Assembly (NCBI RefSeq): GCF_000011805.1
Contig: NC_006841.2
Length of the DNA stretch: 32,000 bases
Source: Aliivibrio fischeri ES114
GTDB taxonomy: Bacteria > Pseudomonadota > Gammaproteobacteria > Enterobacterales > Vibrionaceae
Strand: one strand, 5' to 3'
Part shown: one piece after another, positions 2,206-31,880 of the stretch
Layout of the letters: the number at the start of each line of letters is the position of its first letter
Position numbering within the stretch: position 1 is the stretch's first letter
The notes under the pieces: generated by a model
Databases searched by the model: none
Told to the model about the DNA's origin: nothing
The model's input: the letters and a program-made list of their open reading frames with translations, nothing else
Made by a program: the position numbers and the translations under genes

Positions 2206-2223
2206 ATAAATATAACTAGAATC

Positions 2224-2247: not shown

Positions 2248-2285
2248 AATAAATTTAATACCAATTAACATAAGAAGATTATCAG

Positions 2286-2552
2286 ATGAGCTTAGAGAAA
2301 AATATTATATCCTCTCTTAAAGGAGATTTTATATGGAATGGAGTGAAAACAGAAATACTTTTGCCTTTATCTATCTTAGATTTAATGTGTATACATGAAA
2401 AAAAATATGACGAAATAATTAATTGTATTTTTTCTATTATCAATACTCATAACGATGATGTTGTGAATACAATACATGACATTATGAATCATGATGATTT
2501 ATTTAGTGCCAAAGAGAAATCTCATATAAATTTTGATAAAAATAGAACATAA
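2286..2552 (+). CDS. hypothetical small protein
   Basis: An 88-aa ORF lies between the two MCP genes on the same strand. It has no recognisable motif and the same extreme AT-rich composition as its neighbours. Confidence 0.3.
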   Translation: MSLEKNIISSLKGDFIWNGVKTEILLPLSILDLMCIHEKKYDEIINCIFSIINTHNDDVVNTIHDIMNHDDLFSAKEKSHINFDKNRT

Positions 2553-2633
2553 AAATAAGTTTAATGAAGTTTAATGTTTAATTGAAAATCATTAAGTAAG
2601 GTTAGTACTTTGATAAGTATATGGAAATAAATT

Positions 2634-4277: not shown

Positions 4278-4339
4278 TTAATGGCTTTATTCACAAGAAG
4301 TATATGTAATTGGGGGTAAATTTTTTTGGGTTAAATAAT

Positions 4340-10062: not shown

Positions 10063-10233
10063 ATGACAGACCAGATATTGACCTTGAAAGAGGTAGTAAC
10101 TTATTTAAAATTGGCTGAAAAAACAGCGTATAGATTAACTAGTGAAGGCAAGTTACCTGGATTTAAAGTAGGTGGATCATGGCGCTTTAAGCGTGAAGAT
10201 CTCGAAGCTTGGATAGAAGAGAGTAAAAAATGA
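10063..10233 (+). CDS. excisionase-family (MerR/AlpA-like) helix-turn-helix DNA-binding protein, 56 aa, not in the supplied ORF track
   Basis: The translation is MTDQILTLKEVVTYLKLAEKTAYRLTSEGKLPGFKVGGSWRFKREDLEAWIEESKK. This matches the typical excisionase-type HTH pattern (L-T-x-x-E-x-A-x-Y-L ... G-x-x-W-R-F). Its stop overlaps the hsdM start in an ATGA. Confidence 0.75.
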   Translation: MTDQILTLKEVVTYLKLAEKTAYRLTSEGKLPGFKVGGSWRFKREDLEAWIEESKK

Positions 10234-15042: not shown

Positions 15043-16262
15043 TGTTAGACATGGAAGCGGTTAAAAACTTTTCTATCGATAAATCAGACTGGAAAAAAGT
15101 AAAGTTTGGTGACGTTGTATTTGAGCCTAAAGAATCAGTTAAAGATCCTGTTTCTGAAGGTATTGAGCATGTTGTTGGTTTAGAGCATATCGAAAGTGGA
15201 GATATGTATTTACGCCGCTCAGCAAGTATTGAAGGTAGTACCACGTTCACTAAAAAATTCGTTAAAGGTGATGTTTTATTTGGTCGCCGAAGAGCATATT
15301 TGAAGAAGGCAGCTAAAGCTAAATTTTCAGGAATTTGTTCGGGTGATATTACTGTCATGCGAGCAAGAGATGAGTTGCTTCTTCCTGACTTAGTGCCATT
15401 TATTGTGAACAACGAAAAGTTTTTTGATTACGCAATTACTCATTCAGCTGGTGGTTTATCACCAAGAGTTAAATTCAAAGATTTAGCAAATTTTGAGTTC
15501 TTTATTCCAAGTAAAACAGATCAAAAAAAGCTGCTTTCACTCTTGGAAGGTTTAGATGAATCCTTACAAAATGAATTGATTCTAAAACAAAAACTCGTCT
15601 CTAATTTAGAAGCTCAAATTGAACATCAAATACATGGTGAGCATTTAGATGGTAAGACTATTAATCAAGTAATTAAGAGCTTATCTAGCAAGAAGAAAAT
15701 CATAAAGTTAAAAGGGTTGGGCGAGATCATAAAAGGGAAGGGGATCGCTAAATCAGAAGTTGTCGAGAGCGGAATACCTTGTGTCAGATATGGTGAGCTT
15801 TATACAAAGCACCACCGAATGATTCGAAAATTTCATTCTTATATTTCCTTAAAATCATCTGAAAAATCCGTAAAGCTTAGGGTTAATGATGTTTTGTTTG
15901 CAGGTTCTGGAGAAACTATATCTGAGATTGGTAAATCAGCTGCTTTTACAGAAAGTGTTGATGCATATGCAGGGAGTGATATTTTAATTTTTCGCCCTAA
16001 AGACATGGATGGCTCTTACTTAGGATATTTGATGAATTCACTGCTAGTGAGGCATCAATTGAATAAATTAGGAACTGGAGCAACAGTTATGCATGTATAC
16101 GGTTCAGATATACAAAAGATTGTTGTTCCATATAGAGATAAAGATGAACAGGTCCAAATAGCAAATTGTTTAGAAGAGATAGCTAGCAATATAAGGCTGT
16201 TAGATAGAAAGATTCATAAAACTAAAGAATTATTAGCTGTATTACTTAGCAAGGTGTTTTAG
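15042..16262 (+). CDS. hsdS: type I restriction-modification specificity subunit HsdS
   Basis: Two variable target-recognition halves are separated by a central helical conserved region (LLSLLEGLDESLQNELILKQKLVSNLEAQIE). A C-terminal helical region follows (IANCLEEIASNIRLLDRKIHKTKELL). It shares a 1-nt TAATG overlap with hsdM. Confidence 0.88.
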   Translation: MLDMEAVKNFSIDKSDWKKVKFGDVVFEPKESVKDPVSEGIEHVVGLEHIESGDMYLRRSASIEGSTTFTKKFVKGDVLFGRRRAYLKKAAKAKFSGICSGDITVMRARDELLLPDLVPFIVNNEKFFDYAITHSAGGLSPRVKFKDLANFEFFIPSKTDQKKLLSLLEGLDESLQNELILKQKLVSNLEAQIEHQIHGEHLDGKTINQVIKSLSSKKKIIKLKGLGEIIKGKGIAKSEVVESGIPCVRYGELYTKHHRMIRKFHSYISLKSSEKSVKLRVNDVLFAGSGETISEIGKSAAFTESVDAYAGSDILIFRPKDMDGSYLGYLMNSLLVRHQLNKLGTGATVMHVYGSDIQKIVVPYRDKDEQVQIANCLEEIASNIRLLDRKIHKTKELLAVLLSKVF

Positions 16263-16264
16263 GT

Positions 16265-19258
16265 ATGGGATTTACCGAATTAAATAGTGTGGAACACTAC
16301 ATCATTCATCAAATTAGTGGTGTTAACTTAAACGACGCTCAATGCAAGAATCAAGTGTCTGAGCCTCAAGCTACGTATGCATTGCAATGGCAGTTCAAGT
16401 CTTCAGAGCAACTTGGTCGTGATGTTAATGAGGTACTAGTTGAATCTGAATTAGTTAAAGCGTTGATTCGCCTTAACCCTGAGATTGAAGCTAACCCACA
16501 TTTGGCTGATGAAGTAATACATAAGCTTCGCGCTATTTTAATTTCGGTAAATCAAGTTGGCTTAGTGAAAGCCAATGAAGAGTTTTTCGCCTGGATGACG
16601 GGCGAAAAAACAATGCCCTTTGGCGAAAATAACCGCCATGTACCAGTAAAGTTAATCGATTTAGAAGACTTAACTCGCAACGGCTATGTGGTCACTAATC
16701 AGTTCCGTATTCATCACAGAGAAACCAAAATACCTGACGTGGTATTAATGATTAATGGTATTCCGGTTGTGGTGGGTGAAGCGAAAACACCGATTCGGCC
16801 ATCTGTAAGTTGGCTAGATGGTGCCCATGAAGTACACAACATTTACGAAAACGCTGTACCGCAATTGTTTGTGCCGAATATTTTATCTTTTGCTACTGAA
16901 GGCAAAGAGCTGTTCTATGGCGCAATCCGTTGCCCATTAGAGTTCTGGGCCCCTTGGCGCACTGAAGAGGACGATAATTCAAAAGGCATCGGCCAAGTAT
17001 CTAAGGCTTTGGGGTTAACCGAGATTGGTAAAGAACTCATTGATCTATTAAGCCCTGTACGCTTACTCGATATTATGCGTAATTTCTCATTGTTTACCAC
17101 CAACAAAAAGAAACAGCGTATAAAGGTTATCCCACGCTTTCAGCAGTACGAAGGTGCCAATAAAATTGTTGAGCGCGTTATTGAAGGCAAAATCAAAAAA
17201 GGCTTAATTTGGCACTTCCAAGGTTCAGGTAAGTCATTGTTAATGGTCTTTGCTGCACAAAAACTTCGCCGTACCGCACAACTTAAAAGCCCAACAGTTA
17301 TTGTGCTGGTTGATAGAACCGATTTAGATACCCAAATCAGTGGCACCTTTAATGCTGCTGATGTCGCGAATGTGGAGTCAACCGATAGCATTAAAGAACT
17401 ACAGCGAATGCTAGAGCGTGATACACGTAAGATCATTATCTCGATGATCCACAAGTTCCGTGATGCTAAACCCAACATGAATACCCGTGAAAATATTATC
17501 GTGCTAGTGGATGAAGCCCACCGTACTCAAGAAGGTGATTTAGGCCGTCAAATGCGTGCAGCCTTACCTAATGCTTTCCTATTTGGTTTAACGGGTACGC
17601 CTGTAAACAAAGCAGATAAAAACACGTTCTGGGCATTTGGTGCAGAAGAAGACAAAGGCGGCTACATGTCGCGTTATACCTTTCATGACTCTATTCGTGA
17701 CGAAGCAACATTACCATTGCATTTTGAACCACGTTTAGTTGATGTTCATGTAGACAAAGAAGCGTTAGACAAGGCGTTTAAAGACTTTAAAGAAAGTGCA
17801 GCGCTTAGCGATGAAGAAGCCGATGCGCTTAATCAAAAGTCTGCAAAAATGTCGGCCTTTTTAAAATCACCAGAGCGAGTAGAAAAGATAGTTGAAGACA
17901 TTGCTATTCACTTTATGGATAAAGTTGAACCGCATGGTTTTAAAGCAATGGTAGTGACTCCGGATCGTGAGGCTTGTGTTCAATACAAAGAAGAGCTAGA
18001 TAAGCATTTCCCAGAATCTGCAAGTAAAGTTGTTATATCAACCAGTGCGAATGATGACTTTGAATTTAAACAGAAGTGGGGTGTTGATAAGAGCCAGCAA
18101 GAAAAACTAGTGGATGAATTTAATGATGAAAAGTCAGACCTGAAATTTCTTGTTGTTACCGCTAAATTGTTGACTGGATTTGATGCGCCAATCTGCCAAA
18201 CTATGTACCTCGATAAATCTATCAAGGATCACACGTTGTTACAGGCAATTTGTCGTACCAACCGTTTATATCCAAATAAAACCTTCGGCTGTATTGTTGA
18301 TTATTTTGGGGTGTTTGACGATGCAGCAAAAGCGCTAGAGTTTGATGAAGAAAGCGTTCAGCAAGTTATCTCCAATTTAAGTGAGTTACGCTCTAAACTT
18401 CCACAAGCAATGCAAGATACCTTAGCGCACTTTATTGGTGTAGATAGAAGCTTAGAAGGTTTCGAGGGGTTAGAAGCAGCGCAAAACGCCATTGGTGATA
18501 ATGATAAGAAAGATGCTTTCGCATTGGACTTTAAGTACCTTGCCAAGCTCTGGGAATCGCTTTCACCTGATAGTGTTCTCGATGAATATAATGAAGATTA
18601 TAAGTGGCTTGCTCAGGTCTATGAGTCAGTAAAACCAGCCTCAGACAATATTGGTAAACTGTTGTGGTTAGCTCTTGGCGCTCAGACAACTCAACTGATA
18701 CACGACAATGTACATGTTGGTGATGTTCATAACTTGGAAGAATTTGTTCTCGATGCTGATGTTATTGAGAATATTTTCAATAACCCCGATCCCCGTAAAA
18801 TAAAACAACTTGAAAAAGAGTTAGCAAAGCGTTTCAAAGACCGTGGTGATCTACCAGTATTCAAATCTTTGAGTGAACGTCTAGAAGAGTTACGTGATAA
18901 GGCTGAGAAGGGGCTAATTGCCTCAATCGATTTCGTAAAAGAGCTTTGTAAGATAGCGAAAGAAACCGTACAAGCAGAGAAAGACCTAGATGATGAACTT
19001 CAAGAGAAAACACCTCAAGCGGCTTTAACCGATCTTTTCTTAGAACTTAAAGACGATCAGACACCAGCAGTTGTCGAGCGTATTGTCACCGACATCGATG
19101 CTATTGTGCGTATCGTCCGATTCCCTGGTTGGCAAACCACAACTGGCGGTGAACGTGAGGTTCAAAAGTCTCTTCGTAAGGCTCTACTAAAGTACAAGCT
19201 ACACACAGACCAAACCCTATTCGACAGGGCTTATGGATACATTAAGGAATATTATTGA
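16265..19258 (+). CDS. hsdR: type I restriction endonuclease subunit HsdR
   Basis: It has an N-terminal PD-(D/E)xK motif (IPDVVLMINGIPVVVGEAKTP), Walker A (FQGSGKSL), a DEAH box (VLVDEAHRTQ) and helicase motif VI (LLQAICRTNR). Confidence 0.93.
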   Translation: MGFTELNSVEHYIIHQISGVNLNDAQCKNQVSEPQATYALQWQFKSSEQLGRDVNEVLVESELVKALIRLNPEIEANPHLADEVIHKLRAILISVNQVGLVKANEEFFAWMTGEKTMPFGENNRHVPVKLIDLEDLTRNGYVVTNQFRIHHRETKIPDVVLMINGIPVVVGEAKTPIRPSVSWLDGAHEVHNIYENAVPQLFVPNILSFATEGKELFYGAIRCPLEFWAPWRTEEDDNSKGIGQVSKALGLTEIGKELIDLLSPVRLLDIMRNFSLFTTNKKKQRIKVIPRFQQYEGANKIVERVIEGKIKKGLIWHFQGSGKSLLMVFAAQKLRRTAQLKSPTVIVLVDRTDLDTQISGTFNAADVANVESTDSIKELQRMLERDTRKIIISMIHKFRDAKPNMNTRENIIVLVDEAHRTQEGDLGRQMRAALPNAFLFGLTGTPVNKADKNTFWAFGAEEDKGGYMSRYTFHDSIRDEATLPLHFEPRLVDVHVDKEALDKAFKDFKESAALSDEEADALNQKSAKMSAFLKSPERVEKIVEDIAIHFMDKVEPHGFKAMVVTPDREACVQYKEELDKHFPESASKVVISTSANDDFEFKQKWGVDKSQQEKLVDEFNDEKSDLKFLVVTAKLLTGFDAPICQTMYLDKSIKDHTLLQAICRTNRLYPNKTFGCIVDYFGVFDDAAKALEFDEESVQQVISNLSELRSKLPQAMQDTLAHFIGVDRSLEGFEGLEAAQNAIGDNDKKDAFALDFKYLAKLWESLSPDSVLDEYNEDYKWLAQVYESVKPASDNIGKLLWLALGAQTTQLIHDNVHVGDVHNLEEFVLDADVIENIFNNPDPRKIKQLEKELAKRFKDRGDLPVFKSLSERLEELRDKAEKGLIASIDFVKELCKIAKETVQAEKDLDDELQEKTPQAALTDLFLELKDDQTPAVVERIVTDIDAIVRIVRFPGWQTTTGGEREVQKSLRKALLKYKLHTDQTLFDRAYGYIKEYY

Positions 19259-19282: not shown

Positions 19283-20608
19283 ATGCAAGTATTAGATGAT
19301 ATTTGGTCGTCAATAAAAGGTAATGCAAAAACAAGATACCGAGACCCTTTAATTGGTACTTTTATTGTGTCTTGGTGTTTCTGCAACTGGGATAAATTAG
19401 CATTCCTATTTTGGGGAACAGCAAAAGTTGAAGATAGAATCAGCTCTCTTGCTGAGAGCATGTCTGTTGTTACTGAACCTAGCTTAGTATTCACCGATTG
19501 GGATTTGATTATATTCCCAGTGGTGATCACGGCAGGCTACTTATTTCTTATGCCGTGGGCATCGCTATGGGTGAAGAGGAAGCAAGAGAAAAGCATTATC
19601 TCCCAGCATACACATGCGGTAGATTTAGACATCGAGCAGGCAAAGAAACAATGGGAGCTAAACAAAGAGAAGCTTCGTTCAAATCCTGAGAAAGATTTTC
19701 TAGCGAAGGATGTTGAATTAGATATACAAAGAGAAAAAGAACGTTTGGAGCGTAGAAATAAGATAACGAATTATATTGATAAAAAGGTTGAAGCTGCGAC
19801 TTTATTAGCTGAAAAAAGTAAACTAGATCTTGAAGACAAGAAAAGGTCAGATGAGAAAGAACGATTGGCACTACAAGAAAAGCAGCGTAGAGAAGACTCC
19901 GAGAAGCAACGCTTTGAAGAACATACCGCAATCCATCGTGCGACTCTAGCTTCTCACCGTTTCCCAGCAACCTATTACTTTATGGATTTACTTTCAAACT
20001 CTTTAAAAGAGGACAACGTAGTATTATCACTATCAGCACTTTCGTCTTGTGTAGCAGCAATTTTTGGCTATAAAACCGTAGATGAGTTAATCAACGATAA
20101 AGAGTTTCATAATGATAATTTAAAGTTGCTGAAATACATTGTGTTAGATGATGACCTAACGAAGAAACTAGATTCTATTTGTGAGCAAGAAGGTTCAGAT
20201 AATGAAGATGTAACACCAGATTTATTGTTTGATCATATATATGGCCTTTTTGATGAATTACCATACGAGTTGCTGTCAGATGAATCATTGGCAGAAATTA
20301 TTTCAGAAAGGATCAATACAGATGCTTATGATTTACTACAGAGTGATGATCTGTCAGGTTCTATGGCTGAGACGGATACAATTTTTGATGAAATAATACT
20401 AGAAATGGATGATTTTTCTTTGAATGATAGTTTTGACGTAAAGCTAAGCGGTTATGCAAGTGGTTCACACAGAAGAGAAGAAGGTGTTCATGGACAAGAT
20501 CTTACCGTCCATGTTGAAGCAAGTTGCCTGCCAGTGTTGGGATCATTTGGTTTGAAGGACTATGAACTTGAGATCAGTGGTAGCCCAAGAGACTATAGTC
20601 GTGAGTAG
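19283..20608 (+). CDS. hypothetical membrane-anchored coiled-coil protein with an acidic C-terminal domain
   Basis: GGAG lies 8 nt upstream of the ATG. Two hydrophobic segments are present (LIGTFIVSWCFCNWDKLAFLFWG and LIIFPVVITAGYLFLMPWASLWV). A K/E/R-rich coiled-coil stretch follows, then a D/E-rich C-terminus. There is no catalytic motif I recognise. Confidence 0.6.
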   Translation: MQVLDDIWSSIKGNAKTRYRDPLIGTFIVSWCFCNWDKLAFLFWGTAKVEDRISSLAESMSVVTEPSLVFTDWDLIIFPVVITAGYLFLMPWASLWVKRKQEKSIISQHTHAVDLDIEQAKKQWELNKEKLRSNPEKDFLAKDVELDIQREKERLERRNKITNYIDKKVEAATLLAEKSKLDLEDKKRSDEKERLALQEKQRREDSEKQRFEEHTAIHRATLASHRFPATYYFMDLLSNSLKEDNVVLSLSALSSCVAAIFGYKTVDELINDKEFHNDNLKLLKYIVLDDDLTKKLDSICEQEGSDNEDVTPDLLFDHIYGLFDELPYELLSDESLAEIISERINTDAYDLLQSDDLSGSMAETDTIFDEIILEMDDFSLNDSFDVKLSGYASGSHRREEGVHGQDLTVHVEASCLPVLGSFGLKDYELEISGSPRDYSRE

Positions 20609-20700
20609 AGAAAGAAGGGCTCTTCCGTTTACCCTAAAGATTTGACCTGCTACATGAACCTTTGGCCGTTTTGAGGTAGATTCTTGATACGATGGTTTGT

Positions 20701-20737
20701 GGTATGTAATACCTACCTATTTTACTGTTTTTATTTT
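20701..20737 (+). terminator. weak candidate terminator after the R-M operon
   Basis: ggtatgtaatacc forms a 5-bp stem with a 3-nt loop, nested in a longer aggtag...ctacct pairing (20674-20679 / 20713-20718). It is followed by attttactgtttttatttt. Confidence 0.3.
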
Positions 20738-21000
20738 AAATTATTGAAGGACTAAATATCTTCCTTATTCGTGTCATATTCTAAGTTCGGCGTTTTAAAG
20801 CTTCAACTAAAACTAAATGGGGATATTATTCGATATTAACATTTATAACAAAGTTGTGTAGGTCTACTTATGGCTCTTTCCTTTTATTTTTAGGTTAGGT
20901 CTAATGCTTTGAAAAGGTACGAGGCTTTGTGTCTAGTGACATGTTGTGTCGCATAAACGTAAGCTGTTTTATTTGATGTAAATTAGAAAGATAGATTTTA

Positions 21001-22650
21001 ATGGACAATATATACAAAGGCACGTTTATAGCCTTAGAGGCATGGACTAAAAGCCATAAGAATGAAGATGAGATAGTCGGTGATATTCATTTTCCAGATG
21101 ACGATATGATATATAGCGGAATTCTGGACTCATCATTGCTAAACAAGTGGAAGGTTTTTGAATTTGAAGCTGAAGCAGAAATACCAGTGTCTCTGGTAAG
21201 AGTGCAAAAAAGCGATGATTATGAATACGATTTTAAAGTTGAGACAGTAGACTTTGAAGTTGAAAACAAGTTTTCAACGACAGTTACTAACCTTGTCGCT
21301 GACACAAATAATGATAATAAAGTGAAAGGTAGGGTAACTATTTCTCAAGATAGCAAGCCTGGAATTAGGTGCTATATCAATATAGATCTGGGTACAAATA
21401 CATTTACTCTCCCTTCACAAAAATCCGCTTCGGATGGTGTTCATGCTGTTGTTAAATACAATTCAAAGCGTGAGTGGCCGTTTAGTGCCATCCAATTAGT
21501 GGGTGGATGTGTAGGCAATTTAATTGAATGTCCACAGTTAACCTTTCCAAAGACAACGCATGTGCCAGATGAAGGCTTTGATGAAGTCACTTTTCAATTT
21601 GGCACATTGAGCATTTACACACCACTTAGTGGCCAATTGTGGCACAAATTCAAAGACTCATTAGATTCTTATCGGTTACGTTTGAATATCCCCCAACACA
21701 ATGAATTCATTTTCCCGGTTGTTTATAAGTTATGGAAAAACGAGCAAAACCGCATTGATTTAAATAAGGCACATATTCGTAGAATCTTTTCAAAACAAAC
21801 ATGTATTGCTATAGAAGCCGACATCGAAGCAAAGGCAACTTCTACATGGTTTCGCCCTGAGGGCGTTAGATATGACGTAAGTATTCAGCACAATGAAATG
21901 ATGCTTCATGGTTTTAGAGATATAGAGATCAATACATCTGTTCAGTTTCAGCTCGAAGACGTTTGGGAAAAGCGACAAAGAGAAACGGACGAAGGAACAA
22001 AGATATTTTATAACAACAATAACCGCTGGCGTATTAAGCATATACAGTCCAATGAACAGCGAGTCTTGGCACTTAATGGAAAGGAGTTTAATGGTGAAGT
22101 GTTATTCGATTGGTCGTCTATTGGTGCCGAACATGATCTAGATGATGACCATTTACGGCGTTTAGTCCCATCTACGCAGTCTCAATGTTGGGTGACTGTA
22201 GAGGCTAAAGGAATCGGAAAGGTCGCCATTCAAGTCAACCCTTCAATGCTAAAGTTACATTCATTCATACCTTCAGGCAGCCAAGTAAAAATTAAGTTAC
22301 GTGTCGCACAACGTCGCGGTTTTGAAGATATCAATGAAGAAGGTGTTTTCGAAATATGGTGTGCAAGTATTTATGTCGATATTGAAAAAAGAACGCCTTC
22401 AATCTCGAGGACTCGCCGTTTGAAAATTGAGAGTGTTGAAAAATCAATAAGCAAGAATGACAATGAGATGTTGAAAATTAGTTTTTCTGATCCCACATCT
22501 AAATCTATAACAGTAAAAGAGTTTTCTCATCCCTTGTCTTATTTGAAAGCAATGAATCTTATCGATGTAACTGATAAATATTGCCATGTTACTGCCTTCC
22601 AAATTAATGACACTTTGCATGTGAAACGTATCGATTTAGTAGAGATGTAA
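21001..22650 (+). CDS. hypothetical protein (549 aa), first gene of the helicase-topoisomerase-like operon
   Basis: This long ORF ends 4 nt before the helicase gene. The sequence looks beta-strand-rich (alternating hydrophobic patterns) and has no catalytic motif I recognise. The Shine-Dalgarno is weak, so the exact start is uncertain. Confidence 0.6.
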   Translation: MDNIYKGTFIALEAWTKSHKNEDEIVGDIHFPDDDMIYSGILDSSLLNKWKVFEFEAEAEIPVSLVRVQKSDDYEYDFKVETVDFEVENKFSTTVTNLVADTNNDNKVKGRVTISQDSKPGIRCYINIDLGTNTFTLPSQKSASDGVHAVVKYNSKREWPFSAIQLVGGCVGNLIECPQLTFPKTTHVPDEGFDEVTFQFGTLSIYTPLSGQLWHKFKDSLDSYRLRLNIPQHNEFIFPVVYKLWKNEQNRIDLNKAHIRRIFSKQTCIAIEADIEAKATSTWFRPEGVRYDVSIQHNEMMLHGFRDIEINTSVQFQLEDVWEKRQRETDEGTKIFYNNNNRWRIKHIQSNEQRVLALNGKEFNGEVLFDWSSIGAEHDLDDDHLRRLVPSTQSQCWVTVEAKGIGKVAIQVNPSMLKLHSFIPSGSQVKIKLRVAQRRGFEDINEEGVFEIWCASIYVDIEKRTPSISRTRRLKIESVEKSISKNDNEMLKISFSDPTSKSITVKEFSHPLSYLKAMNLIDVTDKYCHVTAFQINDTLHVKRIDLVEM

Positions 22651-22654
22651 ATAT

Positions 22655-25600
22655 ATGAAAAAAGCTCTAGCCCTGCATTATAACTTATTACAAGGTCATC
22701 CATTTGGTCAGCTCAGTAAGCCATTATTGAGTAATCAGGATACTTTAATCGAAGCTCATGGCGACATCAAACCCAATGCTTTTGGTGCACTTTCAAAACT
22801 AAGCTGCCTTTATCCTTATAAAGGGTTTGAAACATACAATAAAGACTTATTGAAAACGTTAAATGACGTCAAAGTCTCTAAATCTAAAGAAAGTGATAGC
22901 GCTGGTGATGATAATCAAAGTTTAGACAAAAAACTACCCACTTTCAGCGGTGATAGATATGTTTTAGCAATTGATGTCAATCCTGCATATGGGCGAAAAA
23001 CGATCACGGTAATGATTATTCCTGTGAGAATAAAAAACCTTAGTGGGAACTATAATCGTTTTGTATTTTATCCAGATACATCTTCATTTCCGATAATCAA
23101 TCCAGAACTTTTGGAGGTAGAAGGAAATGTACCGCCACATTGTATCGGGAAAATGGAAAACTTTGATAAATTTGATTATTCAGTATTCAAAGAACCGACA
23201 GAAGACTTGCATGAGCTGTTTACAGTTTCTGAAGCAATGTTTGACAAAATCTGCGATACAACACTAGGTTCTATGGAACACCATGAATCACTCGGTCTCG
23301 ATAACCCAGATGTTACAGTGACGTTGCGTCGTGTGATGGCTGATAATTCGGCGAATCAACACATCATTAACCTCTATCGTGATCTCTTTACTGTTAGTGA
23401 CGATTCATTGACAGGAACGTCTGTATGTAAAACAGATTCTGCTTATAAAGATAATGGCAACGTAAAAAATCTAAATGATGATTACCTTATCAGCTTGCTC
23501 CAATCTCGAGAGAAGCCATTTCTGGCTCATATGGACGAATGCACCGGTACTGATACCGGCGATTACAGACACAGGGAGCTGTTTGCTCTAGATAACACAC
23601 AACGTGGAGCAGCGAGTGTTGCAACGCTCATGCGTGAAGGTGATGTTTTGGCCGTAAATGGACCACCAGGGTCTGGTAAAACCGCGATGCTCAAAGCCAT
23701 TATTAGTCATCAATATGTAGAAGCTGCTTTGGCTAAAGGTGATTGCCCGATCGTTATTGGTGTCGGTGGAACAAATCAGTCTGTTACTAACATTGTTAAT
23801 GCATTTCCTAACGTGTTGTATCAAGGCGATAGTAAAACACTGTTGCACATGAGACGGTGGATTGATGGACCTGCTAATTACGGTACATACTTTCCATCAA
23901 CTAGTATCAAAAATAATATGTCTCCCGAACTGCTCAAATCAGCGGTGCTAGGAGAGGTAGATAAATCAAATAAAGGTGGGGTTGTACGTTGGAGTGGAGA
24001 GCTAGCCAATTTAAATAACCCCTCAAAGTTAGATCAACTCATAGGTCAATTTACGAACTATTGTGGGCAACATTACACTACAACATTTAGTGATTTAGAA
24101 AGCTGCGTTGCACAATTACATCATACACTCACAGCTTACTCTAAAGCGATTAATACCTTGTATTATCAGCTTGTTGAAGAGTTTGACAAAGGTTTTGAGA
24201 CACACCCTAGTATTCACACATCATTTTCAAAATTTTTTGACGAGAAACACAGTAACAGTCAGGGGGCAGCCCAAATTAAAACCATGTACGATTTACTGCA
24301 TGGTGATGATTCGAAAAAAATTCAAATTATTTCAGACGTATGTCGAGAGTACCTGCGAGATAATGACTTAGAAGGTAACAATCCGGCTATATTAGCTAAC
24401 TTTGGCGTTCTTTCTGGTATGGCAAAAGTCATTCTTGCTGATCGCGCGGTAGACCTGCTAGTACGTTCAGAGCTGTTCCATTACGCAGCCCGTTATTGGG
24501 AAGGACGCTATCTGCTTTCTTGTTCGGAGCACTTCTTAATCTACGCATCTCCGTCAAACCTTGAAACTGCGCTTCGAAGAATGTGCATGATTACGCCAAT
24601 ACTGGTCTCAACTGTACAATCTGCGCCCAAAATTTTTGCTTATCAAAAGCCTTCAGGGATATCTGAGCAACCATATTTGTACGGGAAAGCAGATTTATTG
24701 ATTATTGATGAAGCTGGACAGGCAGATATAAGGAGTACGTTACCATTACTTGCGTTGGCAAAGAAAACCATCGCAGTCGGGGATATAGCTCAAATCCCTC
24801 CAGTAATACAAGATGTTACTCCGATACAAGAGCAAGGGTTGTTTCAGACATTGGGTATGGGAGTGAACGAAGCTCATACAAAGCGCTGTTTTGTTCATGC
24901 ATTTAAAAACCAGCTACTTCCTAGTATCAGCGGTAGCATCTTGCATGTGCTTCGACAGATCTCATGTGTCAACCACCAAGGGCAAGGCATGTCACTGCGT
25001 GGTCATTATCGATGCCAAGAAGTCTTGAGTCAGTTTTGTAATGAATTGGTCTATGACAATAGTATTTTTATTATCCCACCTCTTTTTAAAGAGAGGGGAC
25101 CATTTCGCCCACTTACTTGGGTTTCATCAGCATCGGAAACTCAAAAAGTAGGCACATCTCATAAGAATGAAAAAGAAGCTCGGACAATTGTAGAGTGGCT
25201 TATTGACCAATGGCCAAGGATTCATGATCACTATAACAAGCCGAGCAAGCCTAAAAAGCGTTTACCTGACTTAGTGGGTATTATCAGTCCATACAAAAAA
25301 CAAAGCTTAGTTTTTATTGGTCACGACGAGGATGATAGTGGAAGTAAAGGTAAAACTCAGGGCATGTTACATAGCCTTCTAATCAAAAAATTTAAAGGTA
25401 CTGAATATGAAATCACGGTTGATGATGTAGATAAAATGAAGATCGGTACCGTCAATGCACTGCAAGGTGCTGAAAAGCCGATTATTTTATTTAGCGGAAC
25501 TAAAAGTATTAAGTTTGGCGGAGATGTTCATTACCGTGCTGCAGCATATATCTTAAACGTTGCAGTTTCTCGTGCGAAAGAATGCTTTGTGGCATTTATT

Positions 25601-26719
25601 TGCGAAAAGACATTTGGGATCCCCACGGTAACAGAAGGGTTAATACCGCCAACTGACCCAAAATCTGATTCAGTAGGGTATTTAGGTTACTACATCGGCA
25701 AACGTGGAGAACGATTGTTCCCAAGAAGCGTTGTTATCATTGAATCAGACAACAAGATAAAGAAGCTCGAAGCGTTGCTCGGTAAGCGCTACATAGTGGT
25801 TAGCACTAAGGGGAAAGTATTAGGGTTACCATTTAGTGATGAAGAAGCTTTACTGGTAAAGAACGGTTTACACCCTAAATACCAGTACAATGTTAAAAAG
25901 AATCCGAAGAAAAAAAGTAATGACAAAGGTAACGCAGCTCGTAAAGCAGTTAGCGATATTTTACAGCTCTGCGGTGGTGCAGATATTGATGAAATTATTT
26001 TGGCAACGGATGATGACAATGTTGGTGAACACATCGCATGGCATTTACAAGAACTATTTAGGCAGCACCAACCTGACTCTCTTAAAAAGCTTCAGCGTGT
26101 TAGGCTCCGTGGTCTATCACCTAAAGCTGTTAAAGAAGCATTCGATGTAGATAATCGAGATTCGTTAGATATTGCACGAGCTTCTGCTGAGATGGTCAGA
26201 GAGTCATTGGATTTAATTCTAGGGAGAAAGTTAAGTGCAATTGCGCAGAAGTGTCCACTGGTTGGTCAAGGAGAAAGTGTTCGATTAGCTTTAGAGAAAC
26301 GACTAATTCAAGAGGTTGATGAACCTCAAGTCAAGGGAATGGGGCGAGTGAAGGCTGCTATTTTATCTCTCGCTTATGGTCATCTTAAAGAACAACTAGC
26401 TTCAATTACTCACCCCACAGAAGCGCCAGTAACTGTGATCGTAAACGGGAAAAAACTTCGAGGAAGGCTGGTTCAGCAGAGACAAAAGACTGAGGGCCAA
26501 GAGGTAGACAAGTCCATAGAATATATTCGTAATAAAGCGCCATTCGAGTCTGAGGGTTCAGGCTGGACCGTAATCGAATCTGAATTTGAGGAAAGGACGG
26601 TAAGCCCGCCGGATGCATCAACACTTAACGTGATGCGTCAAAATGCCATTGAACAACAAGTTAAACCCGTTGAGAGCTATAAAGCACTAACTGGGCTCTA
26701 TGAGGGAAATGATTTATGA
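22655..26719 (+). CDS. SF1B (Upf1/DNA2-like, AAA_11/AAA_12-type) helicase fused to the Toprim/N-terminal part of a topoisomerase IA core
   Basis: Helicase motifs are I GPPGSGKT (23660-23683), II IIDEAGQ (DEAGQ at 24707-24721), III VGDIAQIPPV, IV LRGHYRC, V GTVNALQGAEKPIILFS and VI LNVAVSRAKE. After residue ~1024 come the Toprim Glu (VVIIESDN, E1030 at 25742-25744) and DxD (ILATDDDNVGEHIAWHL, D1119-D1121 at 26009-26017). TopA-like GRVKAAILSL and LYEG follow. Confidence 0.85.
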   Translation: MKKALALHYNLLQGHPFGQLSKPLLSNQDTLIEAHGDIKPNAFGALSKLSCLYPYKGFETYNKDLLKTLNDVKVSKSKESDSAGDDNQSLDKKLPTFSGDRYVLAIDVNPAYGRKTITVMIIPVRIKNLSGNYNRFVFYPDTSSFPIINPELLEVEGNVPPHCIGKMENFDKFDYSVFKEPTEDLHELFTVSEAMFDKICDTTLGSMEHHESLGLDNPDVTVTLRRVMADNSANQHIINLYRDLFTVSDDSLTGTSVCKTDSAYKDNGNVKNLNDDYLISLLQSREKPFLAHMDECTGTDTGDYRHRELFALDNTQRGAASVATLMREGDVLAVNGPPGSGKTAMLKAIISHQYVEAALAKGDCPIVIGVGGTNQSVTNIVNAFPNVLYQGDSKTLLHMRRWIDGPANYGTYFPSTSIKNNMSPELLKSAVLGEVDKSNKGGVVRWSGELANLNNPSKLDQLIGQFTNYCGQHYTTTFSDLESCVAQLHHTLTAYSKAINTLYYQLVEEFDKGFETHPSIHTSFSKFFDEKHSNSQGAAQIKTMYDLLHGDDSKKIQIISDVCREYLRDNDLEGNNPAILANFGVLSGMAKVILADRAVDLLVRSELFHYAARYWEGRYLLSCSEHFLIYASPSNLETALRRMCMITPILVSTVQSAPKIFAYQKPSGISEQPYLYGKADLLIIDEAGQADIRSTLPLLALAKKTIAVGDIAQIPPVIQDVTPIQEQGLFQTLGMGVNEAHTKRCFVHAFKNQLLPSISGSILHVLRQISCVNHQGQGMSLRGHYRCQEVLSQFCNELVYDNSIFIIPPLFKERGPFRPLTWVSSASETQKVGTSHKNEKEARTIVEWLIDQWPRIHDHYNKPSKPKKRLPDLVGIISPYKKQSLVFIGHDEDDSGSKGKTQGMLHSLLIKKFKGTEYEITVDDVDKMKIGTVNALQGAEKPIILFSGTKSIKFGGDVHYRAAAYILNVAVSRAKECFVAFICEKTFGIPTVTEGLIPPTDPKSDSVGYLGYYIGKRGERLFPRSVVIIESDNKIKKLEALLGKRYIVVSTKGKVLGLPFSDEEALLVKNGLHPKYQYNVKKNPKKKSNDKGNAARKAVSDILQLCGGADIDEIILATDDDNVGEHIAWHLQELFRQHQPDSLKKLQRVRLRGLSPKAVKEAFDVDNRDSLDIARASAEMVRESLDLILGRKLSAIAQKCPLVGQGESVRLALEKRLIQEVDEPQVKGMGRVKAAILSLAYGHLKEQLASITHPTEAPVTVIVNGKKLRGRLVQQRQKTEGQEVDKSIEYIRNKAPFESEGSGWTVIESEFEERTVSPPDASTLNVMRQNAIEQQVKPVESYKALTGLYEGNDL

Positions 26720-27219
26720 TCCAGTCAAATAGTGCGCATGAACCAATTGAAATTATTGTGGATGAACATGAGTTAGCTGAAACATATAAATTACTTGCGC
26801 AAAAACATAAATCTAGTTCAAACGACTCATATCTACATATGAGTAAAACACTTAATACTCTTGAAGCTTTTGAGAAAGCTAACAACACAGGTGACTGTGA
26901 ATATCAGATGGCTCGTGTGGTCTTACAATCAAACAAAAGAGGTTCTGTTGTAGTTGAGCTTGAAACTCATGTTTTGGTAGAGCAAGGTTGGACTGAACAT
27001 TTGTCCATTGACATAGAGAACACAGTTGACGTCGGAATTACCAAGGCTGATCTTGCGGCATTTAAGCAAGGAAACTTTAGTGTTGAGATCTCCAAGCCAC
27101 AAGCAATCTCAAATCTGACAGTTGAAGACTTATTGTCATTAATGGACAAGTACATGATTGGTCGTCCATCGACTTATGCCGAATTATTTGCGATCTTACA
27201 GAAGAGAGTAATTTGTTAA
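26716..27219 (+). CDS. topoisomerase IA core fragment (middle part), separate ORF
   Basis: SAHEPIEI, EQGWTEH and MIGRPSTYAELFAILQKR match TopA EAHEAIRP, FDGWTKV and GIGRPSTYASIISTIQDR, recalled from memory, in the same order. The start forms an ATGA overlap with the helicase ORF. Confidence 0.7.
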   Translation: MIQSNSAHEPIEIIVDEHELAETYKLLAQKHKSSSNDSYLHMSKTLNTLEAFEKANNTGDCEYQMARVVLQSNKRGSVVVELETHVLVEQGWTEHLSIDIENTVDVGITKADLAAFKQGNFSVEISKPQAISNLTVEDLLSLMDKYMIGRPSTYAELFAILQKRVIC

Positions 27220-27479
27220 ATATTGATGGCGATAACGTTAGATTAACGACTTTAGGACTCTTGATGGCAGAACATCTTGCCAATGAGACGTTGGACGAGT
27301 TCTCACCGACTTTCAGTTTGATACTTGGTCAAGATTTAGAAAAAATAGGACAAGGAAAAATGTCGCCACTGGATGTTCTGATAAAGTACCTTCCTCTTGT
27401 AGGGGATGAAAATGAGTTCGATGACTTCAGAGAGAACGTATGGCATACCTTGTCTGATATTAGTATTGAAGTGTATTAG
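27213..27479 (+). CDS. topoisomerase IA core fragment (C-terminal part), reached by a -1 frame change; separate ORF or frameshifted continuation
   Basis: LNIDGDNVRLTTLGLLMAEHL continues the TopA alignment ([21 protein letters not shown]) directly after ...LQKRV of the previous ORF. The only available start is the TTG at 27213, which overlaps the previous ORF by 7 nt. Confidence 0.55.
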   Translation: MLNIDGDNVRLTTLGLLMAEHLANETLDEFSPTFSLILGQDLEKIGQGKMSPLDVLIKYLPLVGDENEFDDFRENVWHTLSDISIEVY

Positions 27480-27489
27480 GGGATAGTTT

Positions 27490-28893
27490 GTGAGTAAGAT
27501 CAGCTACCCACGCACGCAAACAAAAAGAGCAACTCAGAGTAAGTGTAGTGAGTTGATAAAACGCATCGATTATTTGCTTTTAAAAAGTCACTTAACCGAA
27601 GCTGAGCTTGAAGAGTTAATTGCCCTTATTGGTTGTATAAATTGGGCTTATGGTGCTCGAAGTTACAGGCTCAAAGCTCTCAGACGTATACACGAGTTAC
27701 GTCAAAAGGTGTTACATGAGCAAGATGAGCAATATCAACAAGAGCTAGACACCTATTATCAAAAGCAAGCTGAGTTAGAAGAGCAACGCAAAGCAGCTAT
27801 AGAGGCTGGAAACAACATCAATATGTTTGATGCCCAGCTAACGTCGTTACAGCAGAATATCGCCTTACATAATGCTTTCATCAAGAGCGCTAATGAACTG
27901 AAGCTAGAAATCCAAACTGCAACGTTACTGTTGACGTCTAGTCACGATGTACGTTCAAGTGCGGATAAACTAAATCAGCCGTTTGAAGATGACTCTTCTT
28001 TTAAGCCCTACAATTTTAAAGAGTTAGCTGATACTAATGGTTCTAAATACTATCACGACCAGTACGGTGAAATATTACGTGAGACCGACTTGGAACAAGT
28101 TGATATAACACAGTACGAAGATCGTGCTAAAAATATCAACAGGGATAAATTAATTTCGGACGCTGAACGGTCACAGTTAGAAAGTGAAGTGGATAACATC
28201 AACACTTTATCTATCGACGCGCGGAAAGCAATTTTTGATGGGTGGATGAAAGGTGGAATCACTCATCTTGATAACGAGTTTGAAGAACTAAAAGATGTTA
28301 ATAAGTGTATTCAAGTGCTAAATGACTTTGGTGTGATGTTTGATACGTACAGTGAGTTAGGAAAGCGAGGAGTTGGTCAGGAAATGTTCCATAAATATGG
28401 CTATCAAAAGGAGCATTATCCTCCATATTCATGCTTTACAGAAAGGTTGAAAATCGGCAAAGAGTCACGAGGCAGTATTCCGTTGATTGATGGGTTGAAT
28501 AACTACAATGAGAAAAAGGCTCTTTGCTTTGCGATTTTTGATGGTCAACACATTGATGAAGAACATTATAAAGTTACCCGTGCATCTGAAGCGTTTATGA
28601 AGGAACTACAGGCGAAAGGTGAGAATGCCACTTTAGGCCAATGGCTTGATAAAGCTGTTGAGTGGAATGCCGAAATTTTCACTGAACGCTTAGAGCGTGA
28701 TGCAAAAGAACCGTACGATAGGGATGCTCTGGCGAAACAAGGACGCAAAGCCGCTGTTGCCATGAGAAATGTTACACAAGCACACTTTGTTAGTTTGGAA
28801 GGTTCTAATGTATTGAGTCTCAAATTAGAAAATGGGAAACACAGAAACAAACTAAACCCAAAGACAGCGAGCAGGGACCAAAATGATTTATAA
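27490..28893 (+). CDS. hypothetical coiled-coil protein (467 aa)
   Basis: The GTG start has AGGGGA upstream. A long Q/E/L-rich heptad-like stretch is present (EQYQQELDTYYQKQAELEEQRKAAIEAG...). No catalytic motif is recognisable. Confidence 0.6.
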   Translation: MSKISYPRTQTKRATQSKCSELIKRIDYLLLKSHLTEAELEELIALIGCINWAYGARSYRLKALRRIHELRQKVLHEQDEQYQQELDTYYQKQAELEEQRKAAIEAGNNINMFDAQLTSLQQNIALHNAFIKSANELKLEIQTATLLLTSSHDVRSSADKLNQPFEDDSSFKPYNFKELADTNGSKYYHDQYGEILRETDLEQVDITQYEDRAKNINRDKLISDAERSQLESEVDNINTLSIDARKAIFDGWMKGGITHLDNEFEELKDVNKCIQVLNDFGVMFDTYSELGKRGVGQEMFHKYGYQKEHYPPYSCFTERLKIGKESRGSIPLIDGLNNYNEKKALCFAIFDGQHIDEEHYKVTRASEAFMKELQAKGENATLGQWLDKAVEWNAEIFTERLERDAKEPYDRDALAKQGRKAAVAMRNVTQAHFVSLEGSNVLSLKLENGKHRNKLNPKTASRDQNDL

Positions 28894-29860
28894 CCACGAA
28901 ATTTCACGCCTTCGTGAAACCAAAAATAGAGATGCAGTTCTGGCAATAATGGTCAGTGTTCCTGACAACGGCAGTATGCCTACGAGTGATGTTTATCTTG
29001 GTATCTTTGATGAAAGCAAGGATAGTGGCTTTTGCTTTTGGACAAACAGTACCGTACTGGATGCCGCTATGACTCTGTCTAACCAGTTCTGGTGTGTAGA
29101 TAATGAAGGGCATGTATTTACAACATCAACATTGGTTAACGCTCCTTTGGCAGTATTGGAGGACGTTTCTTTTGGTTATAAAAAAGAGTACCTCTCCAAA
29201 ATTAATGCTTATCGTTTTTCTGAGTTACCAATCAATACGTTATGGTGTTGTGATCGACTAACTATACTTGCAGACGAATCGGGTACAGTGTGTCATATCG
29301 AAGGTGACAAAGTCACGTTACACTCTCTGGATCTAATTCCATTATCTTTTTTTGGAAATGCTTACAATGATTTATATCTATATGGCCGAAAAGCGAAGCT
29401 TTGGCATTTCAATGGTATACAGTGGACTGAAATCGCATTGCCTGATGTTGGACTTGATCATTTAGCGATCTCTGGAGGAATTGTACTTAGTGACGGGAAT
29501 GTGATGTTTGTGACATCTTACGGATTTGTTTTCAAAGGTAATGCTAAAAAAGGATTTTCGCTACTCTCAACTCTTAAAAAACTTTATTCGGGAATCTGTC
29601 AGTATCAGGGGCGCTATTTTGTCAGCGCAAAAGATGAAGGGTTGTTTGAGGTGACGAATATTGATAATCAATGGCAATTTCATCTCATTTCACCAGCGCG
29701 GCTTCCTCTTTCACTTCATACAATGGGTCAGGAAGGGAACCAAGCTCTATTTATGGTGAGCGCATTGAATATTGGGAAACCGCATTTTGTTGTTGTGGAT
29801 CCAGGCAACAATTTTGGAGAAAAAGAAAGAGCATATAGTTGGGAGATAAACATTGAATAA
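28883..29860 (+). CDS. hypothetical protein (325 aa), possibly beta-propeller-like
   Basis: It overlaps the upstream ORF by 11 nt. Short strand-turn motifs recur (GHVFTTS, GTVCHIEGDKV, LWHFNGIQWTEI, GNVMFVTSYGFVFKG, GRYFVSAKDEGLFEV), reminiscent of propeller blades. The fold call is inference only. Confidence 0.55.
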   Translation: MIYNHEISRLRETKNRDAVLAIMVSVPDNGSMPTSDVYLGIFDESKDSGFCFWTNSTVLDAAMTLSNQFWCVDNEGHVFTTSTLVNAPLAVLEDVSFGYKKEYLSKINAYRFSELPINTLWCCDRLTILADESGTVCHIEGDKVTLHSLDLIPLSFFGNAYNDLYLYGRKAKLWHFNGIQWTEIALPDVGLDHLAISGGIVLSDGNVMFVTSYGFVFKGNAKKGFSLLSTLKKLYSGICQYQGRYFVSAKDEGLFEVTNIDNQWQFHLISPARLPLSLHTMGQEGNQALFMVSALNIGKPHFVVVDPGNNFGEKERAYSWEINIE

Positions 29861-30443
29861 CATAACGATCGTACAGCAGATTGAAGAACTTTCTGTTTAT
29901 GCAAATTACCTAGATGAATCTGATCAACGCAAGCTGGTGGTTTGGTTCGAGTTGTTAAGAAATGCACTTCAAAGCAATGATTTAAATAAATCACAGAGAG
30001 AGTCGTTGTGTCGACTGATGGTTGCTCAATGTACGCCAAATCGTTGTAAGAATGCAGGTGCTGTATTGTTCTATGTTCCATATGCACTTCGCTGTTACTT
30101 TATCCTAGGAGACTTTTCTGAAGTAAATCTTAAGAGAATGAAGGAGTTATATGCATTATTAAACCCTGAAAATTTGATTGAGGTATTGGATTGCCACTTT
30201 TTCTTCCACCAACTCTTTGGCTTTCCCAAAAAGTTGGTGAGAATCATAGAAGATGCAGATAAACAGTCAGCTCAATCGTCTATGGATGTTAAAGCGTTTG
30301 TCTTTGCAATTAAACAAGCAAACACAATGACAATGGGAGCGATTAACAAGTTTGAATATTTACCAAGTATTAAATCAGATAGTGCTTGGAAAAAATTGCC
30401 GTGGTTGAAGTGGCAGTTGAGCACGATGAAAAACATAATGTAA
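29853..30443 (+). CDS. hypothetical helical protein (196 aa), last gene of the operon
   Basis: The TTG start has GGGAG 9 nt upstream and overlaps the previous ORF by 8 nt. No motif is recognisable. Confidence 0.5.
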   Translation: MNNITIVQQIEELSVYANYLDESDQRKLVVWFELLRNALQSNDLNKSQRESLCRLMVAQCTPNRCKNAGAVLFYVPYALRCYFILGDFSEVNLKRMKELYALLNPENLIEVLDCHFFFHQLFGFPKKLVRIIEDADKQSAQSSMDVKAFVFAIKQANTMTMGAINKFEYLPSIKSDSAWKKLPWLKWQLSTMKNIM

Positions 30444-30671: not shown

Positions 30672-30692
30672 GAGGCAGCTTTACGCTGCCTC
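30672..30692 (-). terminator. hairpin spanning the integrase stop codon (candidate terminator)
   Basis: gaggcagc (30672-30679) pairs with gctgcctc (30685-30692) around a 5-nt loop. On the minus-strand transcript it is followed by ttcattaaataaatt. Confidence 0.5.
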
Positions 30693-31880
30693 ATCTATAT
30701 AATTACTCCACCAGCACATAATCTCTTTTCTTTGTTCTAAATAATCAGAACGGTTGTAACTGGCTCTCACTTCATTTTGGTCGGCATGTGATAAACAAGC
30801 TTCAATCAATAAACTATCAAAACCGTACTCGTGAAGGGCAGTAGAAGCTATAGCACGCAATCCATGAGCAACTAACTCATCTTTTAGCCCAAGACTACGC
30901 TTTATGGCTGCATTTGCTGTAAACAAGCTTACATGGCTATTTATATCTCGCTCACCAGGAAAGACATAATCACATCGTTTGCTTTGTAATCGAATCTGAT
31001 TCAGAATGTTGATTGCTTGTGATGTCAGCGGTATACGGTGTTCTTTTCTGCGTTTCATATTCTCAGCAGGGATAGTCCATACGCCTTTTTCTAAATCAAT
31101 ATCTATCCAGCGAGTTGTTGCCGCTTCCTTTGGGCGCGTCATTGTGTGTAGCTGCCATAAAATGAGCAATTTAGTTTTAGTTTGTATTGTTGAACATGAA
31201 TGCAGTCGTTTTAAAAAATCAGGTAATTGCTCTGGCCGAATAGTAGGCATGTGCAAAACTGTATTTTTACGAAAAACTTTAATTATTTTTGCTAATGGAT
31301 TTGCGTGTATTAAACCGTGGTTAACTGAGTAATCCATGATTTGGTTAAGGCTTTGGCAAATTCGTTTAACCGTCGAGTATTTACCTTCTTTTTCTAGAGG
31401 TCGTAATACATCTATTGTTTCTACAGCAGTGATCGTAGCAACAGGAATTTTGCTCATATGAGGGAAAATATATTTTTCTAATGTCCGCCATTCCCGGTAT
31501 GAATGCGCAGGAGAAACCGTTTCTTTTTTTCGTTCAAACCATTGTTCTGCAACTACGATAAAAGTCGACGTCTGTACTCTTTTCGCCTCAAGCTCTTTAC
31601 TTTGTTCAAATGACTTAGGGTTGATTTTTTGAGCTAAGAGTGTTCGGTACTCAGTTGTTTTGGATCGAGCATTAGCAAGAGATAATTCAGGATAAGGGCC
31701 AAGTGCTATTTTCTGAATCTTTCTTGTTACAGGGTCACTGAATTTAAATTGCCATGATTTAGCCCCAGTTGGACGTACACGCAATTGTAATCCTTCACCA
31801 TCAGATAATGTAAATTCTTTCCCTGTTGGTGCTGCTGATTTTATCTTTCTATCAGTAAGACGAATTACTTGACGAGCCAT
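30681..31880 (-). CDS. int: P4-type tyrosine recombinase/integrase (DUF4102 N-terminal arm-binding domain plus phage-integrase catalytic domain)
   Basis: The N-terminus LTDRKIKSAAPTGKEFTLSDGEGLQLRVRPTGAKSWQFKF is typical of P4-like integrases. Catalytic-domain landmarks are TMTRPKEA (Arg), AHGLRAIAST (HxxR) and CLSHADQNEVRASYNRSDY (His ... Tyr). Confidence 0.93.
   Translation of the reverse strand: MARQVIRLTDRKIKSAAPTGKEFTLSDGEGLQLRVRPTGAKSWQFKFSDPVTRKIQKIALGPYPELSLANARSKTTEYRTLLAQKINPKSFEQSKELEAKRVQTSTFIVVAEQWFERKKETVSPAHSYREWRTLEKYIFPHMSKIPVATITAVETIDVLRPLEKEGKYSTVKRICQSLNQIMDYSVNHGLIHANPLAKIIKVFRKNTVLHMPTIRPEQLPDFLKRLHSCSTIQTKTKLLILWQLHTMTRPKEAATTRWIDIDLEKGVWTIPAENMKRRKEHRIPLTSQAINILNQIRLQSKRCDYVFPGERDINSHVSLFTANAAIKRSLGLKDELVAHGLRAIASTALHEYGFDSLLIEACLSHADQNEVRASYNRSDYLEQRKEIMCWWSNYIDEAA

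Follow-up and report, generated by a model that had tools for sequence, protein, structure and literature searches.

Where does a type IA topoisomerase keep its catalytic tyrosine when its reading frame stops one strand short of it? The question is raised by an operon of six genes, A to F, in a 32,000-nucleotide (nt) stretch of Aliivibrio fischeri ES114 (contig NC_006841.2), which is referred to here at its full length as the window. Gene B of this operon couples a helicase of superfamily 1B (SF1B) to the first part of a type IA topoisomerase-like core, gene C continues that core, and the segment that should carry the active-site tyrosine is found in neither. An original prediction, made by reading the sequence, held that this tyrosine motif is absent and that the module acts on DNA without covalent tyrosine chemistry. 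We find a counterpart of the motif at the extreme N-terminus of the next gene, D, and genes B, C and D probably encode a transesterase like the type IA topoisomerases, built of three chains, coupled to a helicase and provided with its nucleophilic tyrosine in trans. The locus is best read as a Mokosh-like SF1B helicase with a type IA topoisomerase of three chains in place of the phospholipase D (PLD) nuclease.

The topoisomerase core of genes B and C

The features of genes B and C (lengths in amino acids, aa) are as follows.

22655..26719, plus strand: gene B, 1354 aa, with an N-terminal region, the SF1B core, Toprim and the N-terminal part of the toroid
23660..23683, plus strand: Walker A motif GPPGSGKT (aa 336–343), invariant in a 24-sequence alignment (A5)
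24707..24712, plus strand: Walker B D685-E686 (DEAGQ), invariant in the same alignment
25730..26077, plus strand: Toprim domain, aa 1026–1141 (Pfam PF01751, E 3.6e-13)
25742..25744, 26009..26011 and 26015..26017, plus strand: codons of the Toprim acidic residues E1030, D1119 and D1121, respectively, from alignments
26078..26716, plus strand: topoisomerase IA domains II, IV and III (N-terminal portion), from the alignment with canonical enzymes and the Foldseek-compared model of an unsplit homologue; this segment holds R1231, the arginine of the GRV motif
26696..26707, plus strand: LYEG helix, after which the canonical order breaks off at the missing tyrosine strand
26716..27479, plus strand: gene C, 254 aa when intact, the remainder of the topoisomerase IA toroid
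26737..26739, plus strand: H8 of the His motif NSAHE at the start of gene C, aligned to canonical type IA enzymes
27160..27174, plus strand: GRPST motif of gene C, aligned to canonical type IA enzymes
27182..27183, plus strand: 1-nt deletion, GCCGA[T]ATTATT without the T, which splits gene C into two open reading frames (ORFs), ORF2 and ORF3

Gene B matches the Pfam families AAA_11, AAA_12 and Toprim, and its helicase is of the SF1B (Upf1/Mov10-like) type. The PADLOC model MkoC matches the helicase region at 3.9e-131, with the best stretch ending at position 941 of the 1136 in the model, and no PLD family is among the Pfam matches of gene B at E values up to 1. In the nearest relatives without a topoisomerase module (L038 and L047) a PLDc_2 domain follows directly after the helicase, so that the Toprim-topoisomerase module stands exactly where Mokosh has its nuclease. 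The prediction of a full-length type IA-like core joined to an SF1B helicase is upheld by several lines of evidence. First, a phmmer search of Protein Data Bank (PDB) sequences returns bacterial topoisomerase I (Topo I) chains at 1e-13 to 1e-14. Secondly, the profile matches are significant, both for Toprim and for Topoisom_bac, which matches ORF2 at E 1.7e-9, above the gathering score and over profile positions 251–354 of 411. Thirdly, the landmarks IIES, ATDDD..GE, GRV, LYEG, SAHE and GRPST occur in order in a MAFFT alignment with canonical enzymes, and E1030, K1034, D1119, D1121, R1231 and Y1349 are invariant among the 24 aligned homologues. Fourthly, the four-domain toroid (domains I–IV) is present in an AlphaFold2 model of the unsplit module of a homologue, P0044, rather than of the window protein itself (52-row alignment; predicted local distance difference test, pLDDT, 83.7; predicted template modelling score, pTM, 0.85), and a low-confidence linker (308–340) lies exactly where the tyrosine strand and its helix belong. 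With this model Foldseek finds the 67-kDa fragments of TopA in the PDB at 2.6e-27 (template modelling score 0.63–0.70, about 580 columns), followed by topoisomerase III (Topo III), TOP3B and reverse gyrase. Judged by its motifs (ISYPRT, and the GHPP[LVI]xP of P0044, P0045 and other unsplit homologues, compare GDHPPITP in TOP3B), the family resembles Topo III, but bacterial Topo I gives the best Foldseek matches. The NCBIfam topA models match both pieces far below their cut-offs (TIGR01051 topA_bact, 78 bits versus 456), the topB model gives 17 bits versus a cut-off of 516, and NCBIfam topoisomerase I models match the repaired gene C.

The Toprim acidic cluster had been described as intact, which is so for E1030 and the DxD pair and not for the whole of it. 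All 28 members retain the Toprim Glu, Lys and DxD, as expected of a type IA Toprim, together with the arginine of GRV, but the third acidic residue of DxDxE has been replaced by V, M or A in all 28 (here V1123, 26021..26023). Canonical enzymes always have an arginine just before it (DxDRE); in this family 24 of the 28 members have Y, F or N at that position and 2 still have the arginine. We take the lost acidic residue to be the equivalent of E115 of TopA, which matters for Mg2+-dependent religation by that enzyme, as judged by mutagenesis. The other hallmark of the type IA enzymes, a Tyr-x-Arg strand in domain III of the same chain, occurs neither in B nor in C, nor in any fused B-C protein.

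The original prediction divided the core among three ORFs, and their coordinates stand (22655..26719, 1354 aa; 26716..27219, 167 aa; 27213..27479, 88 aa; in frames 2, 1 and 0), but they are not three genes, as ORF2 and ORF3 are separated by the 1-nt deletion after 27182. L010, a Logan contig with 99.986% identity to the window over 6993 bp, differs from it by nothing but an extra T after 27182 and encodes an intact C protein of 254 aa; alignment of the Vibrio owensii orthologue with 26716..27479 likewise leaves a 1-nt gap in the window. Gene C is a single ORF of 246–270 aa in all eight of the other split loci first fetched, and of 246–301 aa in the close orthologous loci (421–434 aa in L036 and L040). 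The copy in this record is either inactive or mis-sequenced. Because the break is a 1-nt deletion, a match formerly drawn between ELFAILQKR and SIISTIQDR falls in an out-of-frame tail and has to be withdrawn; the true reading is DIICDLTEESNLLNIDGDNV. Programmed frameshifting at both junctions was considered and rejected, the first junction being a conserved stop/start overlap and the second being missing from the near-identical contig.

At the first junction the stop codon of B follows LYEGNDL, gene C starts within an ATGA overlap, and a TGA lies two codons upstream in that frame. Between LYEG and SAHE about 43 residues, the tyrosine motif included, are missing relative to canonical enzymes (53 relative to TOP3B), so that the earlier estimate of about 40 residues, and the view that the helicase ORF ends where the tyrosine strand should begin, are both borne out. 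This boundary is conserved. Split helicase-Toprim homologues of 1253–1452 aa, from 96% down to 31% identity, end 2–9 residues past LYEG; 27 were in the first search set, from Vibrio, Photobacterium, Salinimonas, Psychrosphaera and Pseudomonas, and later searches added others with the same boundary in all seen. Roughly 50 helicase-Toprim representatives were counted, by the length column, among the best 150 matches of a search of 1.84 billion cluster representatives, and at least 14 of these are unsplit (1466–1650 aa), with LY[DET]G followed by a short tyrosine-less linker and then GHPP[LVI]xP. The pattern [ST]Y.R[ST] is found in none of the 66 helicase-Toprim proteins scanned (split and unsplit, 1100 aa or longer). 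Since the Tyr-Arg segment is missing from split and unsplit forms alike, its excision is a property of the family and not a product of decay. The tyrosine of LYEG was also considered as a nucleophile and rejected, the same residue being conserved and non-catalytic in canonical enzymes.

The tyrosine motif at the start of gene D

27490..28893, plus strand: gene D, 467 aa, with a GTG start 10 nt after the stop codon of C
27499..27516, plus strand: codons of I4-S5-Y6-P7-R8-T9 of D, the TAC of Y6 being at 27505..27507

The tyrosine motif that had been reported as absent lies at the beginning of the gene that follows C. The N-terminus of D reads MSKISYPRTQT, in which we propose Y6 as the catalytic tyrosine and R8 as the arginine of the YxR motif. 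The corresponding sequence at the catalytic tyrosine of human TOP3B (PDB chains) is AERLYTQ-GYISYPRTET, with GDHPPITP further on, and the D proteins of Psychrobacter, Methylophaga, Marinomonas and Thiopseudomonas start with MGYITYPR[TS]. Comparison of these strings with TOP3B indicates that B ends and D begins exactly at the canonical junction between LYE and GYI[ST]Y, and that C takes up again with the His motif, where the excised segment ends.

The motif is conserved together with the topoisomerase module. YPRT is invariant at residues 6–9 in 10/10 of the D homologues first examined, including neighbours of unsplit B-C genes. A genome-wide scan then added 44 loci, and a plus-strand ORF whose N-terminus carries Y[PS]R[TSA] stands beside the topoisomerase genes in every one of the 41 loci with a Toprim/topoisomerase module, in 38 of them directly after C or the fused B-C gene and in three between B and a C counterpart (C'); as background, the motif turns up at a rate of 1.2e-4 per residue. 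No such ORF was found at the nine related helicase loci without the module. Profile comparisons point the same way. With a 10-sequence D profile hhalign matched the canonical type IA catalytic motif alone (E 0.0054, canonical columns 291–304), and with 41 sequences the match extended over the catalytic strand and the next helix (E 7.7e-5, probability 62%, 40 columns, canonical columns 292–331). When a hidden Markov model of the canonical segment was run against 3513 ORFs, D proteins made up 10 of the top 19 matches. Searches of PDB sequences with the 10-sequence N-terminal profile, or with a 30-aa D peptide, returned chance matches only, the motif being too short. At the level of sequence a conserved active-site tyrosine is thus available in trans, and the proposal that the module dispenses with covalent tyrosine chemistry gives way to an adjacent protein whose [ST]YPR[TS]-type motif, present at all 41 loci, aligns with the catalytic strand.

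Across clades D can be aligned over its first ~50–70 residues only; the rest is helical, probably coiled-coil, and poorly conserved. A single-sequence AlphaFold model of D is unusable (pLDDT 41), and there is a weak Tox-GHH2 match (E 0.12). At two loci, L023 (from 8436) and L024 (from 6704), a 566-aa ORF consists of D (aa 1–246) fused to a member of the E family (aa 268–564), which suggests that D and E work together physically. A distant subfamily, found in a Spartobacteria metagenome-assembled genome (MAG; L039), Acidithiobacillus marinus (L042) and Pelomonas candidula (L050), has the order B, an ORF of 155–175 aa, a D counterpart (D') with an N-terminal TYSRT, and C', starting with HHPMLQP. 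D' here places the tyrosine piece between the halves of the toroid, its ancestral position. A further variant, in Pseudomonas and Azoarcus (L036, L040 and L041), has a longer B (1718–1782 aa) and a short D of 241–290 aa that still starts with [IL][ST]YPRT.

Possible action of the three chains

We propose the following division of labor. B would contribute an active-looking SF1B helicase, then Toprim and the toroid as far as the LYEG helix of domain III; C would contribute the remainder of the toroid from the conserved His motif on; and D would supply, in trans, a piece of 50–70 residues at its extreme N-terminus, made up of the Tyr/Arg strand ISYPRT and the next helix. The N-terminus of D would dock in domain III and so rebuild the active site, the helicase would expose single-stranded nucleic acid, and Y6 of D would attack it to form the 5′-phosphotyrosyl link that all type IA enzymes form. 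Because the operon sits in defence islands, it may well act against invading DNA.

Several points weigh against this interpretation. First, the anti-phage activity is deduced from the genomic neighborhood alone. Secondly, gene C is frameshifted in this window. Thirdly, the similarity of D to the canonical enzymes comprises a short motif plus one helix, with an hhalign probability that is just the 62% given above. Fourthly, the loss of the E115 equivalent and of the arginine before it could impair Mg2+ binding and religation. Lastly, the large C-terminal part of D, together with A, E and F, has no recognisable domain, and the effector could reside there.

Cleavage by such an enzyme could end either in resealing, with strand passage, or irreversibly, by release of a D-DNA adduct. 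The loss of the E115 equivalent, together with a tyrosine chain that can detach, makes us lean, weakly, towards an irreversible nick capped by D. In its full form this is a tentative idea, which we would put forward as possible and less than probable: a "suicide topoisomerase" immune effector that leaves Tyr6 of D covalently attached to the 5′ end of a protein-capped nick. The helicase would load the type IA core on invader DNA and Tyr6 of D would cleave one strand; the B-C body would then leave, since no covalent bond holds D and the residue needed for religation is degraded. The leftover protein-DNA crosslink would block replication or packaging, and D, sometimes fused to E, would be consumed stoichiometrically.

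The same three chains might, alternatively, reseal the break and work as a genuine topoisomerase driven by ATP, comparable to reverse gyrase or to RecQ-Topo III but mesophilic and with an SF1B helicase. The output would then be altered topology of the target, DNA or RNA, in the form of supercoiling, catenation or knotting, and not damage. We regard this as a conceivable outcome, though a doubtful one. It would account for the retention of the complete toroid needed for strand passage, and the helicase lies N-terminal to the topoisomerase module as in reverse gyrase. There is also precedent for division of the chain, as the topoisomerase domain of the two-subunit reverse gyrase of Methanopyrus kandleri is divided between the subunits, and split reverse gyrases are active heterodimers (PMC4117796). 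Against it, the E115 equivalent is lost in 28/28 members, the module takes the place of a nuclease effector, the scores fall far below the reverse gyrase and topA cut-offs, and there is no apparent reason for a resealing enzyme to keep its tyrosine on a separate chain. The likeness to reverse gyrase extends to the occurrence of naturally split forms and to Foldseek matches with the enzymes of T. maritima and A. fulgidus at ~1e-20. However, the reverse gyrase helicase is SF2-like whereas this one is SF1B (AAA_11/AAA_12), the reverse gyrase model TIGR01054 scores 34 bits versus a cut-off of 472, the hosts here are mesophilic proteobacteria and the genes lie in defence islands, and the tyrosine strand has been cut out and placed on a third protein, an arrangement unreported for reverse gyrases in the literature searched.

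Far less likely is that B and C form a tyrosine-less module whose Toprim metal site binds nucleic acid or nicks it hydrolytically, in the manner of OLD, GajA and AriB, with the SYPRT of D having no catalytic part. This would fit the absence of a tyrosine motif from B and C, the invariance of the Toprim Glu and DxD, the frequency of Toprim nucleases among defence effectors and the replacement of a PLD nuclease by the module, yet it leaves unexplained why D carries an exact copy of the catalytic strand at every locus with the module and at none of the relatives without it, and why conservation extends to the entire toroid, the His motif and GRPST. The OLD-family Toprim nucleases (GajA, AriB and the retron Toprim effectors) do resemble the present system in pairing a Toprim defence effector with a nucleoside triphosphatase, but they are hydrolytic and lack topoisomerase IA domains II–IV and a catalytic tyrosine; no PADLOC GajA or OLD match was obtained here, where Topoisom_bac and a full toroid are present instead. 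Gene decay, in which the three ORFs are the dead remnant of a helicase-topoisomerase fusion, is scarcely credible and is refuted for the first junction, for although the ORF2/ORF3 break is a real frameshift in this record only, the B/C boundary, the excision and the D motif persist at identities from 96% to ~25%, across alpha-, beta- and gammaproteobacterial genomes and Verrucomicrobia and Silvanigrellaceae MAGs, and the catalytic and helicase motifs are invariant.

Returning to the three-chain transesterase, the closest known system on the helicase side is Mokosh type II, which shares the Upf1-like SF1 helicase core and the defence-island setting. It differs from the present system in being a single gene with a PLD nuclease, as opposed to an operon of 5–6 genes with Toprim and a type IA toroid in place of PLD. 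Given the strength of the MkoC match, loci of this kind could be mislabelled as Mokosh type II though they lack its nuclease. On the topoisomerase side TOP3B is similar, with ISYPRT and HPP(I/L/V)xP matching its residues 333–341 and 387–394 and with the same four-domain fold; unlike Topo III and TOP3B, the system is divided among three chains, has DxDxV/M in place of DxDxE, lacks C-terminal zinc ribbons and is fused to a helicase. Toprim and tyrosine are found on different chains, or across subunits, in the type IIA and IIB topoisomerases (GyrB/GyrA, Topo VI) and in Wadjet JetD/MksG. Those enzymes have a dimeric gate with 5Y-CAP/WHD domains, whereas here a monomeric type IA toroid has been cut on both sides of the tyrosine strand.

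To our knowledge, all type IA topoisomerases on record carry the nucleophilic tyrosine in the chain that forms the toroid. In the literature searched we found neither a type IA enzyme with the tyrosine on a separate subunit nor a fusion of a Mokosh-like helicase to a type IA core; what it does describe are reverse gyrases that are split (PMC4117796) and defence systems with Toprim nucleases. If our interpretation is correct, type IA chemistry would here have a new architecture, with the tyrosine on a separate, exchangeable subunit, and the locus would serve as an experiment of nature on what keeps the DNA gate together. It would also be a candidate for a new class of anti-phage effector, operating through covalent protein-DNA adducts or through ATP-driven changes in topology.

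The operon and its genomic setting

21001..22650, plus strand: gene A, 549 aa, the first gene of the operon, with its stop codon 4 nt before B
28883..29860, plus strand: gene E, 325 aa, overlapping the end of D by 11 nt
29853..30443, plus strand: gene F, 196 aa, overlapping the end of E by 8 nt
30681..31880, minus strand: an ORF read as a putative tyrosine integrase from its translation alone

Genes A to F form a tight operon, with overlaps or gaps of 4–11 nt between the genes. Gene A has no family match in Pfam, NCBIfam, PHROGs or PADLOC; the same databases give nothing significant for D, E and F, and the counterparts of A, E and F from four other clades have no Pfam match. B, C and D are universal across the loci, and the A, E and F positions are occupied by several unrelated sequence clusters. 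In most orthologous loci a gene of 277–735 aa, again from several unrelated clusters, abuts or overlaps the start of B, and gene E is kept in the Vibrio and Alteromonas clades. A scan of viral contigs found one locus, and a plasmid search did not find the system, returning just an ordinary topA; the B-C-D system is essentially chromosomal.

The neighboring genes include type I restriction-modification, GmrSD and McrBC genes and the putative integrase read from its translation, which would mark the edge of the island. The type I restriction-modification operon occupies 10230..19258, with two hsdM genes (10230 and 13576) followed by hsdS and hsdR, and a GmrSD/DUF262-type gene (11708..13579) sits between the two hsdM genes. 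A 441-aa ORF (19283..20608), 25 nt past hsdR, matches only PHROGs of unknown function (phrog_4780, 1.5e-19); it could have an accessory role in defence or be what is left of a prophage. The GC content is 22–32% over the two methyl-accepting chemotaxis protein genes at positions 1..4300 of the window, and ~39–42% in the defence island. In Vibrio owensii (L001) the orthologous operon has McrBC and an AAA_15 ATPase upstream and a ThiF / E2-like / JAB cluster downstream (19436..22009), and thus lies in another defence-island setting.

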